52,354 bases of DNA from a virus: the IMG/VR virus record IMGVR_UViG_3300026320_000002. One strand, written 5' to 3'. A model generated the notes under the pieces. It did not search any database, had not been told where the DNA came from, and worked only from the letters and a program-made list of their open reading frames with translations. This document shows positions 39,171 to 48,848 of the stretch, piece after piece (within the stretch, counting starts at the first letter, position 1; every line of letters starts with the position of its first letter). Both the position numbers and the translations under genes were made by a program.

Positions 39171-39490
39171 AGCTGCACCTTGGCGAGCGCAGCGCGGGCC
39201 TTGCGGATAGTGTGGCGCAGCGCGACCTCCGCGCCAGAGCCCACTCGAGCGTGCGGCAGTTCCTCCTCCGCAATGTCTCGGCAGAACTTTAGTGCCGCCA
39301 CCAGCTCGTCGTGCGCGTTGCAGGCCGTGACGATGAAAGCGGCGTCTGCTGGGTTGCGCACCAGCTGCGCGATACCTTCCCGCCAATCGCCGGCGCGCCC
39401 ATAGGTCTCGCCGCCCTCCTGGTAGGTGTCACCGTCCGGCATGATCACGCCGCCATCGGCGTACCACGGCCCCGGCGTGCGGGCGCTCAC
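39167..39490 (-). CDS. Hypothetical protein, member of the NA-x-FIV-x-ACNAH-x-EL paralogue family
   Basis: 107 aa with a GTGA overlap and SD ggagg. GPWYADGG...NPADAAFIVTACNAHDELVAALK. Confidence 0.55.
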   Translation of the reverse strand: MSARTPGPWYADGGVIMPDGDTYQEGGETYGRAGDWREGIAQLVRNPADAAFIVTACNAHDELVAALKFCRDIAEEELPHARVGSGAEVALRHTIRKARAALAKVQL

Positions 39491-39903
39491 TCTGCCTCCA
39501 GGCCCGCCGGCACTTCCTGCCAGCCTTTCGGGGCTTGTGGAACGATCGGATAGGCGGCGGCGACCCGCGCCCACCTGGGGCTGCTCTCTTGGTTGAACCC
39601 GGCCGTCATCTTCGCGGTCTCGCGAGCGGCCTCAACTTGCGGGATGCTGAACAGGTGGGGGAAGGCGAGCACCACCAGCGCCCACTCGCAATCTTCCTCG
39701 AACGCGCAGGCGTCGGTGTGGTAGCCCTGGTTGATTCGCAGCACCCCAGGCATGGCGCCCAGGCGCTCGCGGGAGATGAGATACCCGCCGTGGCTCGGGG
39801 TCGTCACGGACCAGATCCCGGGGGCGACCTGCTCGGCCCAATCGATCTGGCCCCAGGGGGACGATCGCGGGCGGGGCATGGTCTCAAAGCTCTTGGTCAT
39901 CAT
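39487..39903 (-). CDS. DUF7007-like protein, first gene of the second leftward operon
   Basis: 138 aa. SPWGQIDWAEQVAPGIWSVTTPSHGGYLIS fits my recollection of DUF7007, which occurs in plasmid and phage early regions. Confidence 0.55.
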   Translation of the reverse strand: MMTKSFETMPRPRSSPWGQIDWAEQVAPGIWSVTTPSHGGYLISRERLGAMPGVLRINQGYHTDACAFEEDCEWALVVLAFPHLFSIPQVEAARETAKMTAGFNQESSPRWARVAAAYPIVPQAPKGWQEVPAGLEAE

Positions 39904-39960: not shown

Positions 39961-40050
39961 CTCAGGCGGCCACGACATTGGCCGCGACCAGCGCCCGGGC
40001 GACTGCCGGGGGGACGGAGTTCCCGCACATCCGAACCTGGCTGGTTTTGG

Positions 40051-40518
40051 TCATGCTGCGTATCTCCGGCCGGCGCCGTTCGGGTTCTTCGGGCGCACCG
40101 GCACCGTTAGTGCCTCATCGACAGTCCAGCCGCCATCAAGTCGTTTCTTGACGGTATCGCGCGGCAATGCGAGCAGCTCACACCACTCCGCGAGCGGACG
40201 CCTGGCGCCGTTGAAGTCCAGCACGCGATTGCTGCGTCGGTTACGGTCGTTGACCTTTCGCAGTACCCAGCGGCAGTTTCCTGGCTCGTAGTGACCGTTG
40301 TTGTCGCGGCGATCCAGTTCATGCGCCAGGCTGGGCTTCGGTCCCATGTCAGCGACGAACGCTGCCACATCGTTCAGCCAGCGGGCACAGACGCGAATGC
40401 CGCGACCACCATAATTGGCGTAGGCGGCGTTGCTGGGCACGGTGCAGCGCAACCGCATCATTTGCCATGCGCGGTACTCGCGCGTGCTGGATAGGCCATG
40501 GATCGGTTTGCCGCTCAT
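40051..40518 (-). CDS. Putative DNA-binding / homing-endonuclease-like protein (YGGRGI motif family)
   Basis: 155 aa from ATG 40518 with an ATGA overlap. YRAWQMMRLRCTVPSNAAYANYGGRGIRVCARW...LDRRDNNGHYEPGNCRWV. Confidence 0.5.
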   Translation of the reverse strand: MSGKPIHGLSSTREYRAWQMMRLRCTVPSNAAYANYGGRGIRVCARWLNDVAAFVADMGPKPSLAHELDRRDNNGHYEPGNCRWVLRKVNDRNRRSNRVLDFNGARRPLAEWCELLALPRDTVKKRLDGGWTVDEALTVPVRPKNPNGAGRRYAA

Positions 40519-41405
40519 GCGAAGCACGCGCAGCCGCCGATGTCGAACATGTCCACCTGGGCGCCGGCCTCGATTCGCTCCCGAAGCTGGCGCATCGTCA
40601 GTGGCTTTCTCACGCCGCCTCCGCTGCGGTCGGTCATCATCGACACGTTCTTGTCGAGGTACGCGCGCAACGCTTCCTCGCGCGCCTCGTGCTCGGCGTA
40701 GCGCGCTGGCATTGTTCGCAGCAGATTGGCGAACTGTCCTTGGCCGGCCTTGCAGCAGAACCCGCCGCAATTATTGTGAGAGAAGCCCATGGCGTACAGC
40801 CGAGGCGGCGCGATGCCCTCGCGCTTGAGCCATGCCAACAGGTCCAGCTTCAGCAGGTAGGGCGCATCACACAGCGGCGCCATGTACACCCACGGTTTGC
40901 GGCGTTCCACCAGGGCGTCGTAGCGGTGCTTCTCTGTCCAGTCGATGCCGACGTAGCAAGCCGTGCGCGCCGGGTCGCAGTGCTCGTTCAGCCAACGGTC
41001 CGCCATCTGGCGTTTCAGGATCTTGCTGCAAGGGTCAATCGAACTGTTCCCAAGGAATCGTTCGTCTTGGTACACCTGCCATGGCGTGCGACCCTCGGCG
41101 ATGCGGCACAATCGCGCGCCGACGTTCGCCGCGGCTTCATCCAGAAATCGGTAGCAGTCCTCATCCTCAATCAGTGTGTCGGTAAACAGCAGCGTCATAC
41201 GATCGGTGCCGTGCCGCTCAGCCACTCGCTTCGCGGCAGCCCACGAGCCGACGCCGCCGCTGAACATGACGACGTGCATGGCGATCGCCTCGGCGTCGTG
41301 ATTGATCGCGTAGTCGATGTGGGCGCCCAGGCCCGCTTCGATGCCGGTAGAGGCCCCGCCGCCGCCGGCGAAGTTGTCGACCACGATCTCCGGTCTGGCG
41401 TTCAC
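40515..41405 (-). CDS. PAPS-reductase-like PP-loop protein fused in frame to a C5-DNA-methyltransferase motif-I N-terminal stub
   Basis: aa 1-42 IVVDNFAGGGGASTGIEAGLGAHIDYAINHDAEAIA carry the FxGxG SAM-binding motif I. From the internal ATG (41279) the sequence reads MHVVMFSGGVGSWAAAKRV (SGGxxS PP-loop). Cys clusters CGGFCCKAG and GGCACF lie at the C-terminus. Confidence 0.65.
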   Translation of the reverse strand: MNARPEIVVDNFAGGGGASTGIEAGLGAHIDYAINHDAEAIAMHVVMFSGGVGSWAAAKRVAERHGTDRMTLLFTDTLIEDEDCYRFLDEAAANVGARLCRIAEGRTPWQVYQDERFLGNSSIDPCSKILKRQMADRWLNEHCDPARTACYVGIDWTEKHRYDALVERRKPWVYMAPLCDAPYLLKLDLLAWLKREGIAPPRLYAMGFSHNNCGGFCCKAGQGQFANLLRTMPARYAEHEAREEALRAYLDKNVSMMTDRSGGGVRKPLTMRQLRERIEAGAQVDMFDIGGCACFA

Positions 41406-41722
41406 GGCTCTACCCGATCGTGAATGGCCACTGCGCCGTAGAACCTATGGCCCAGCAGCTCCTCGCACTTCTGGTTGAAGCGGCTGTCCGAGGTCTCGGC
41501 GAAATTCCCGCCGGCCATCACCCAGGAGTCGCCGCACTCGAGCGGGCGGATCCGCAGGCACCCCGGAACATGCTGTTCGAGGACTGCCGCCGGCGCCTCG
41601 GGCCGCGGGTCAAACGGGCCCTCGACATTGGTCAGGGTAAGTTGATCGAAGCGCGCGCTCGCGCCGCCGTTGCTGCAATCGCCCAGGCGGGGCGAGCGCA
41701 ACACATAGACTGGCATTCCCAT
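41402..41722 (-). CDS. Hypothetical protein coupled to the PAPS-reductase-like gene
   Basis: 106 aa with SD ggaggaacaattATG. Its stop overlaps the GTG of the next gene. Confidence 0.55.
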   Translation of the reverse strand: MGMPVYVLRSPRLGDCSNGGASARFDQLTLTNVEGPFDPRPEAPAAVLEQHVPGCLRIRPLECGDSWVMAGGNFAETSDSRFNQKCEELLGHRFYGAVAIHDRVEP

Positions 41723-47745: not shown

Positions 47746-48019
47746 CACCGCACTCGGAGGCTTGCCCGAGGCGCTCAAGCGCATTTTCGAGCAGCAGCTC
47801 GTGGGTGCGACGGGGACCTGGTCGGAGGGGCAGTTCGGCCCTGGGGACGCTGGGGACATCCAGTTCGCGATCGGCGCGAAGGCGGGCCGGGTGATGCTGG
47901 ATTTTGGCGCCCCGGTGTTCTGGATGAGCATGCACCCCGATCAGGCCGCGCAGATCGCGCAGCACATCCTCGCCGCGGCCAACCAGGCCAAGGCACAGGC
48001 GCAACTGGGAGTAGGCTGA
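47729..48019 (+). CDS. Hypothetical protein, paralogue of 44651..44914
   Basis: 96 aa. It overlaps the end of rusA by 17 nt. Confidence 0.55.
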   Translation: MAHHGDTALGGLPEALKRIFEQQLVGATGTWSEGQFGPGDAGDIQFAIGAKAGRVMLDFGAPVFWMSMHPDQAAQIAQHILAAANQAKAQAQLGVG

Positions 48020-48375
48020 TGCGAACCTTGAGCGAACACGGGGACTCAGTCCTCAACAGCAAGCTGACCATCACCGTGATGGATGAGCAGGGGCCAGGCG
48101 GAGCGCATCACGACTACGAGCTCGCCGGCTTCGCCGGCGGTCCGCTTCGCATCCGCTTCCAGAACGGCGGGATCGCCGAGCAGGGGGCGAACGGGGTGAG
48201 CAACGAGGCGTTGCTCGTGATCGTGCTCGATCGATTGCGCAGCTTCCAGAAAGGCCCCTACGCCTGCAGGCCCAATGGAGCGGCGATCGAGGACATCGAG
48301 TACGCGCTCTCCGCACTCGAATCCCGGACCAAGGATCGGGTCGCACGCGGTGTGGAGGGTAGGACAATCCTCTGA
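48019..48375 (+). CDS. Conserved hypothetical phage protein
   Basis: 118 aa. FQNGGIAEQGANGVSNEALLVIVLDRLRSFQKGPYACRPNGAAIEDIEYALSALESRTKDRVARGVEG resembles a recurrent phage family, from memory. Confidence 0.55.
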   Translation: MRTLSEHGDSVLNSKLTITVMDEQGPGGAHHDYELAGFAGGPLRIRFQNGGIAEQGANGVSNEALLVIVLDRLRSFQKGPYACRPNGAAIEDIEYALSALESRTKDRVARGVEGRTIL

Positions 48376-48488: not shown

Positions 48489-48848
48489 ATGGCTACCCTT
48501 GCGACCGTCACCTCCTACGGGAATGTCGAGCAGTTCAACGGAGGTATCGGCGTCAATGCCGCTGACGTCGTCGTCCAGACCGGGGATGTCTCGCGCTTCG
48601 ACACCTTCATGGTCCGCAATGGGGCCGGCGCGGTGGAGATCGTGGCGAGCCTGGATGGCACGAACTACGATGCGCCACTCTCCCTCGATGACCTGGGCGC
48701 GACCACCTCCGCCCCGGTGATTGTCACGGTGGCTGGCCGCACCTATCGGGTCAGGGGCTCGTTCATGTTCCTCCGAGTGCGCCAGAACGGAGCGACGGCC
48801 GCGACCGGTGTGACGCTGCTGTGTGCCCGCCAGACCAAGGCCGGGTAA
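48489..48848 (+). CDS. Beta-sandwich-like protein, paralogous to the N-terminal domain of 2767..3738
   Basis: 119 aa. See the alignment given for 2767..3738. Confidence 0.55.
   Translation: MATLATVTSYGNVEQFNGGIGVNAADVVVQTGDVSRFDTFMVRNGAGAVEIVASLDGTNYDAPLSLDDLGATTSAPVIVTVAGRTYRVRGSFMFLRVRQNGATAATGVTLLCARQTKAG

Follow-up and report, generated by a model that had tools for sequence, protein, structure and literature searches.

An in-frame methylase and PP-loop enzyme chimera in a phage early operon, probably the scar of a replacement within a cytosine methylase gene

The window analysed here is the whole 52,354-nucleotide (nt) stretch of DNA from the virus record IMGVR_UViG_3300026320_000002 (IMG/VR), and the element in question is a chimeric open reading frame (ORF) in which the 5′ end of a Dcm-type C5 cytosine methyltransferase (methylase) gene runs in frame into a cysteine-rich PP-loop enzyme resembling 3′-phosphoadenosine 5′-phosphosulfate (PAPS) reductases. 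The ORF list and the sequence place all genes of the stretch around this ORF on the minus strand, in the order, 5′ to 3′, of DUF8317 gene, methylase 5′ end, PAPS-like gene, HNH endonuclease gene, methylase 3′ end and DUF7007 gene (Table 1). The TGA of the upstream gene, which encodes a protein of 106 amino acids (aa), overlaps the GTG of the chimeric ORF in a GTGA at 41402-41405, and the stop of the chimeric ORF overlaps the start of the HNH gene in an ATGA at 40515-40518, both as described in an earlier note made from the sequence of this DNA. Another ATGA overlap couples a 30-codon ORF, absent from the earlier note, to the HNH stop, and a gap of 58 nt lies between this small ORF and the DUF7007 gene. 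NCBIfam gave no match for any of the three proteins of 106, 296 and 155 aa.

The N-terminal residues 1-44 of the chimera (the stub) matched PHROG DNA methyltransferase families (E 6e-9 and 1e-8), and at the DNA level the stub shares 73-81% identity with dcm 5′ ends from phages of Pseudomonas, Burkholderia, Aeromonas and rhizobia. Aligned with a methylase family hidden Markov model (HMM) built from 116 stub homologues, residues 8-44 occupy positions 7-51 (77.6 bits, E 7e-23), corresponding to motif I with its S-adenosylmethionine-binding F-x-G-x-G loop, which is what the earlier note had recognised in the first codons of the ORF. Proteins matching the stub at E<=1e-3 comprised 2,708 long and 1,375 mid-length sequences, with PF00145 present in all but two among the matches listed. 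When the whole window was searched in six frames, the family HMM matched exactly two pieces, at positions 7-51 and 501-532, the second of which (39965-40066, E 3e-11) contains motif X (GNSVPP); Pfam PF00145 touches this 3′ relic at its extreme C-terminal positions 298-320/324 (E 0.009). The same search of the whole window found neither the catalytic Pro-Cys of motif IV (SPDC in this methylase family) nor the ENV of motif VI, and motif X is not contiguous with the rest of the methylase, existing only as the detached 30-codon ORF. With just these two pieces present and SPDC and ENV absent, the window protein is not a methyltransferase. The suggestion that all later methylase motifs had been lost is therefore correct for the catalytic motifs and has to be amended for motif X.

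The parental arrangement is preserved in a relative, L218, a Logan contig of 16,955 bp that encodes the second member of the cluster formed around the 106-aa protein at 90% identity. L218 aligns with window positions 48840-36529 in eight colinear blocks of 71-88% nucleotide identity, covering 7,193 of 12,269 bases. In the same slot between the DUF8317 and DUF7007 genes it carries the intact methylase, a PF00145 protein of 502 aa with both the SPDC and ENV motifs. The L218 gene starts at the same GTG and overlaps the upstream DUF8317 gene by 4 nt just as the chimeric ORF does, indicating that the coupling to the 106-aa gene was inherited from the methylase. Furthermore, 28 of the 30 residues of the 3′ relic agree with the L218 methylase C-terminus, and the two end at the same stop.

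Comparison of the two sequences by blastn and codon alignment resolved both breakpoints. Homology breaks off at 41274 and picks up again at 40053, with about 1,220 bp of insert replacing 1,285 bp of methylase interior (L218 6450-7734; roughly codons 45-473). At the left joint the window is identical to L218 at 107 of 132 nt (81%) through ATG CAC, and then at 12 of 48. This joint connects the methylase ATG CAC in frame to the PAPS-like gene, which continues from the fourth of its native codons; as PAPS-like relatives begin ATG AAR CAC GTC GTC ATG TTC, the parents share only 3 nt (CAC) at this point and the PAPS-like gene loses its first two codons. On the right, the last 5 codons and the stop of the HNH gene lie at or over the junction, the TGA being supplied by the methylase sequence CTG ACC, and the similarity of the closest HNH relative (L088, 75% identical) stops at codon 150. 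No flanking direct repeats or target duplications were found at the insert. A separate similarity of 26 nt (77% identical) was seen between the PP-loop DNA (V-V-M-F-S-G-G-V, 41248-41273) and the motif-I DNA (V-D-N-F-A-G-G-G, 41356-41381). It is a coincidence of two strand-plus-glycine-loop motifs, and is not the crossover site, because the joint is 108 nt distant.

Seven contigs, drawn from JGI, ENA, Logan and NCBI, contain the same fusion junction. Four of these (JGI, ENA and two Logan runs) were compared and are 100% identical to the window in DNA, and the second cluster member of the fusion protein differs solely in the translation of the first codon. Since seven contigs from independent assemblies carry it, the junction is real and not an assembly artefact. 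Against L218, the ratio of non-synonymous to synonymous substitution rates (dN/dS) was 0.17 in the stub, 0.06 in the 3′ relic and 0.13 in the intact flanking gene, the stub value coming from small counts (11 non-synonymous changes, 14 synonymous). The remnants thus resemble the flanking gene, which suggests that most of the divergence predates the event and, we infer, that the replacement is young compared with the separation of the window and L218 lineages. Taken with the breakpoints, the chimeric ORF is very probably a recombination scar, in which a 1.2-kb segment with the PAPS-like and HNH genes took the place of the methylase interior. Of the two origins offered in the earlier note, a deletion scar or a new fusion, the scar that replaced a methyltransferase body is borne out by the intact gene in the same slot of L218; a simple deletion and a conserved fusion are not, the event being a two-gene replacement.

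Table 1. Features of the chimeric locus in the window.
Feature	Coordinates	Strand	Basis
Upstream gene, 106 aa, DUF8317 / phrog_6045	41402..41722	-	phrog_6045 E 2.6e-17; PF26991 precomputed
Methylase 5′ relic, codons 1-44 of the chimeric ORF (FAGGGG ... AINHD ... AMH)	41274..41405	-	family HMM; L218
Inserted segment of ~1,220 bp, PAPS-like gene from its fourth native codon and HNH gene	40054..41273	-	blastn; codon alignment
Chimeric ORF, 296 aa, GTG start	40515..41405	-	44 methylase codons in frame with PP-loop Cys-rich enzyme
Possible internal start, GAGG (41288-41291), 8-nt spacer, ATG (41277-41279)	41277..41291	-	sequence
Free-standing HNH endonuclease gene, 155 aa	40051..40518	-	phrog_3377 E 2.5e-50
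Methylase 3′ relic, 30-codon ORF with motif X (GNSVPP)	39962..40054	-	family HMM; PF00145; L218
Downstream flank, DUF7007 gene	39487..39903	-	PF22653 E 6e-27; synteny with L218

The body of the chimera is a full-length PP-loop protein. Residues 42-295 match phrog_424 (PAPS reductase, E 8.6e-53), and the PADLOC SspD model matches the body with E 5e-13 over profile positions 2-202 of 277, whereas the PADLOC DndC model gave no match to it at E<=0.1. Profile searches thus support both halves of the fusion proposed in the earlier note, including the Dnd/Ssp-type resemblance of the second half. A large protein search with the body returned 5,889 homologues, the best 120 of which are stand-alone proteins, mostly of ~250-275 aa and at most 74% identical, that cover only residues 44-296, begin with MKHVVMFSGG or close variants and in no case carry the methylase stub; the ATG at codon 43 does, as had been noticed, provide a near-native N-terminus. 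Identities reach 45-55% with annotated phage proteins and up to 74% with metagenomic ones. The PP-loop (SGGxGS) and the invariant Cys126, 213, 217, 292 and 294 are present, and all 60 of the 60 invariant columns in an alignment of 42 PAPS-like sequences are retained. The body lacks the first two native codons and, at the C-terminus, the short tail that follows the last Cys-x-Cys-Phe. Some members of the PAPS-like family are naturally extended by up to ~57 aa at the N-terminus, suggesting that the methylase-derived leader is likely to be tolerated.

In an AlphaFold2 (AF2) model of the chimera, with a mean predicted local distance difference test (pLDDT) score of 86.7, the 10-residue blocks across residues 41-280 have mean values of 88-98, and values fall below 50 at residues 1-29 and 31-33. 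The modelled body has the PP-loop ATP-pyrophosphatase fold and matches CysH, LarE and TtuA; the Foldseek match to CysH (E 4e-7, template modelling (TM) score 0.45-0.60, 18% identity) denotes similarity at the level of the fold only. The C-terminal catalytic motif of the assimilatory PAPS reductase CysH is E-C-G-L-H. No ECG(L/I)H motif occurs in the translation of the chimera, which ends G-G-C-A-C-F-A. The closest solved relative in sequence is PptA (PDB 21fy, chain C, 270 aa; E 1.8e-9, low identity), aligned over residues 47-241 including an NNC-G-C-K-GG cysteine motif; no paper describing PptA was found in a literature search, and it therefore gives no functional guidance. From these features the enzyme may be expected to work like an SspD/DndC-type adenylating, cysteine-dependent and probably sulfur-transferring enzyme. 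Where PMC13551039 deals with lone phage PAPS reductases, it presents them as DndC/SspD homologues in anti-defence hotspots and, citing Piel et al. 2022, states that a phage PAPS reductase promotes evasion of host Dnd.

Two loci of close homologues are recorded here in their own right. The closest homologue (74%; L220, 536-760) lies in an operon of small genes with a Lar-type restriction-alleviation gene (a weak Pfam match), which fits an anti-restriction neighbourhood. Another close homologue (L005/L006, 85-1865) is situated just downstream of a diversity-generating-retroelement module (bAvd and reverse transcriptase) with Lcl_C-type target genes, in a prophage-like region that has an integrase.

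The gene downstream of the chimera, which the earlier note had read from its YGGRGI motif as DNA-binding-like, proved to be an HNH endonuclease gene. Its H..N..N core, H-x-L-D-R ... Y-E-P-G-N-C-R-W, is intact and conserved with relatives, and the Pfam HNH models gave no match to the 155-aa protein. Members of the family occur as free-standing genes dispersed over many phage contigs. At 40066-40083, within the last HNH codons and ~10-30 nt from the right junction, lies a GC-rich palindrome (CCGGCCGGCGCCG with the complement that overlaps it).

Linkage surveys were used to establish whether these genes form a conserved module. The 80 IMG/VR loci with relatives of the 106-aa gene (at most 54% identical) have no methylase, PAPS-like or HNH gene nearby, 80 HNH loci contain no piece of the window's methylase family within 4 kb, and 48 PAPS-like loci show no recurrent neighbour and no conserved partner. 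Two of these 48 have an intact methylase of the window's family at a distance of 3 kb, and in one, L170, an HNH gene of 44% identity lies just upstream; at one HNH locus (L129) a distant PAPS-like gene lies 2 kb away. An HNH gene downstream of the PAPS-like gene was seen in none of the contigs with the closest homologues (L005-7, L219 and L220), and the combination of PAPS-like, HNH and methylase sequences is repeated at none of the 80 + 80 + 48 loci. Methylases close to the stub (L213, L214, L221 and L222) lie in different gene contexts, DUF7007 relatives were met at one distant locus only, and tblastx of the loci against the window gave compositional noise only. The coupled three-gene unit suggested in the earlier note (DUF8317 gene, chimera and HNH gene) is thus not a conserved module, its coupling having come with the methylase. 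In the same way, the IbrB/ParB-type partner considered there was not found adjoining the chimeric gene. In sum, the note's observation is confirmed and its interpretation partly supported, the scar being right and the unit wrong.

The stub is shared by 119 other mid-length proteins among the matches listed; all but one of them carry PF00145, none has a PAPS-like or HNH cassette, three are internal-deletion methylases and a few are cut short. The three (P0276, P0326 and P0354; 165-235 aa) have N-terminal portions of 80-140 residues joined in frame to the last ~85-90, showing that gutted copies of this phage methylase family recur without an insert. Another family member, P0199 (885 aa), contains LAGLIDADG_3 and Hint_2 domains, that is, an intein, another mobile element residing in the methylase family.

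We propose that the ancestor carried, between the DUF8317 and DUF7007 genes of its early operon, a Dcm-type C5 cytosine methyltransferase of ~500 aa, and that a stand-alone SspD-like PP-loop gene and a free-standing HNH gene came to replace its interior. The joints would have arisen by illegitimate, microhomology-type recombination, leaving the PP-loop enzyme as the presumed functional product. Ribosomes terminating on the DUF8317 gene could reinitiate at the inherited GTG and give the 296-aa protein with a passenger leader of 42 aa; instead of this, or as well, a near-native protein of 254 aa could be made from the internal ATG, which has a GAGG before it by chance. Both elements of this internal start are derived from the methylase, the ATG being the Met of its conserved A-M-H and GAGG its conserved E-A codons. 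For the internal ATG the calculated duplex with the anti-Shine-Dalgarno (anti-SD) sequence was -5.9 kcal/mol; the GTG start gave -3.8, the coupled start of the HNH gene -4.8 and uncoupled genes nearby -9.5 to -11.8 kcal/mol. The 254-aa product is plausible too, since the internal ATG pairs better than the GTG, and the enzyme is probably made with the passenger leader, from the internal ATG, or both. The phage would thereby have lost C5 methylation, this having been its only detectable C5 methylase, and gained in the same slot an HNH nuclease together with an ATP-dependent, cysteine-based enzyme that may act alone or with host factors.

Several points weigh against this reading or limit its reach. 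The ancestral state is shown by one relative only, and the compared contigs in the derived state are all identical, leaving no post-event variation in which constraint on the stub would show. The PAPS-like and HNH genes may have come in as one piece or one after the other. The low AF2 confidence over the stub is uninformative, since no alignment rows cover it, and the GTG, the internal ATG or both may be the start in use. For the enzyme itself, Pfam PAPS_reduct (PF01507) scored below its gathering cut-off (19.2 vs 22.5 bits), the Dnd-evading PAPS reductase of PMC13551039 is a Vibrio phage protein, and the biochemical role, probably in DNA-modification or anti-defence sulfur chemistry, is one that we infer.

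The alternative that fares best makes the HNH gene a homing-type element that cut the dcm gene and brought the PAPS-like gene as cargo, in a targeted mobile-element event. The position of the HNH gene exactly at the right junction, where it reads into methylase sequence, makes such an endonuclease-driven invasion possible, and the scattered free-standing occurrence of its family, the HNH and PAPS-like neighbours at L170 and L129 and the intein of P0199 are all in keeping with it. However, homing normally inserts without deleting 1.3 kb of its target, no repeats flank the insert, the closest HNH relative is adjacent to neither a PAPS-like nor a methylase gene, and both the absence of the window's methylase family within 4 kb at any of the 80 HNH loci and the absence of the cassette from the other listed mid-length stub-sharing proteins speak against targeting; we regard this explanation as unlikely. 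Broader still, the PAPS-like and HNH genes could constitute an endonuclease-driven cassette with anti-defence cargo that invades methylase genes, and/or the leader could have been co-opted to make a new two-part enzyme. This seems to us very unlikely; if true, the phage would be actively swapping C5 methylation for sulfur/PP-loop chemistry at a defined hotspot.

A functional neo-fusion, in which the 42 methylase-derived residues are needed by the enzyme as a docking or regulatory segment or as an aid to nucleotide binding, would account for the in-frame joint, the retention of the inherited coupling and the undegraded state of the stub (its family HMM score and dN/dS given above). A recent event explains the low dN/dS equally well, though, and an in-frame joint has a one-in-three chance of arising, while the internal ATG with its GAGG offers a product free of the stub. 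Moreover, most of the methyltransferase fold and every catalytic motif are missing from the fragment of 44 residues, which accompanies none of the best 120 of the 5,889 PAPS-like homologues. We therefore consider the neo-fusion possible in principle, unparsimonious and highly improbable. Finally, that the 42 aa are normal for the PP-loop family, or that the junction is an assembly chimera, can be dismissed, given the leaderless best 120 homologues with their MKHVVMFSGG-like starts, the 81% identity of the stub DNA to the orthologous L218 methylase and the identical junction in 7 contigs.

The preferred reading, replacement by recombination, has clear precedents. Novel joints produced by illegitimate recombination are known for lambdoid phages and mycobacteriophages (the Hendrix and Hatfull literature). 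As in that mosaicism, unrelated sequences are joined here with little or no homology (3 nt) and a module is swapped at a fixed position of an otherwise syntenic operon. Surviving joints in phage mosaics usually lie at gene boundaries, whereas both joints here are inside a gene of which both ends survive, one of the joints creates a chimera that reads in frame, and the parental gene can still be seen unaltered in a relative.

Like other stand-alone phage PAPS reductases of phrog_424 (from mycobacteriophages, Bradyrhizobium and Bacillus phages), the window protein has a full-length body and no conserved partner gene, and such proteins occur among early and anti-restriction-type genes (e.g. the Lar-like gene near the L220 homologue); it stands apart through the methylase-derived leader at its N-terminus, which was found in no other member. 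With the SspD/DndC enzymes of DNA phosphorothioation it shares the SspD HMM match, the PP-loop and conserved cysteines. It is nevertheless a phage-borne protein of ~255 aa, and the likeness is one of sequence. No cysteine desulfurase, SspC/DndD ATPase or SspB/DndE partner is found nearby, the neighbours being the DUF8317, HNH and DUF7007 genes. With these operon partners absent and none recurrent across the 48 PAPS-like loci, the protein is not placed in an Ssp or Dnd system. It differs from CysH in falling short of the Pfam cut-off and lacking the ECGLH motif, and from the IbrA/IbrB pair in having no ParB-like partner in the flanking genes or recurring beside its homologues. Homing endonucleases sit in or beside conserved genes, as do the mob and seg genes of T-even phages. 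The HNH gene resembles phage free-standing HNH and homing genes in being small, tightly coupled to its neighbour and of a widespread family, and departs from homing endonucleases in its association with a cargo gene and loss of the target, with targeting of dcm unsupported by the 80 HNH loci.

In the flanking region shared with the relative, L218 469-873 encodes a protein of the Acb2/Tad1-hairpin family (the sponge family directed against Thoeris and the cyclic-oligonucleotide-based antiphage signalling system, CBASS) near RusA; the window ORFs 48019-48375 and 48489-48848, in the region matching this locus, gave no Pfam match.

The event is ordinary phage mosaic recombination, unusually well resolved, and not a new kind of system. 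Its value lies in providing a before-and-after pair, resolved to the base pair, for a module swap within a gene of a phage early operon, and in illustrating how expression signals, here translational coupling, can pass from a gene to the accessory gene that replaces it. A cytosine methylase traded for an SspD-like PP-loop enzyme in one slot is in keeping with the idea that such slots are anti-defence hotspots, and the window phage together with an L218-type phage makes a natural pair for probing the widespread, uncharacterised phage 'PAPS reductases'.

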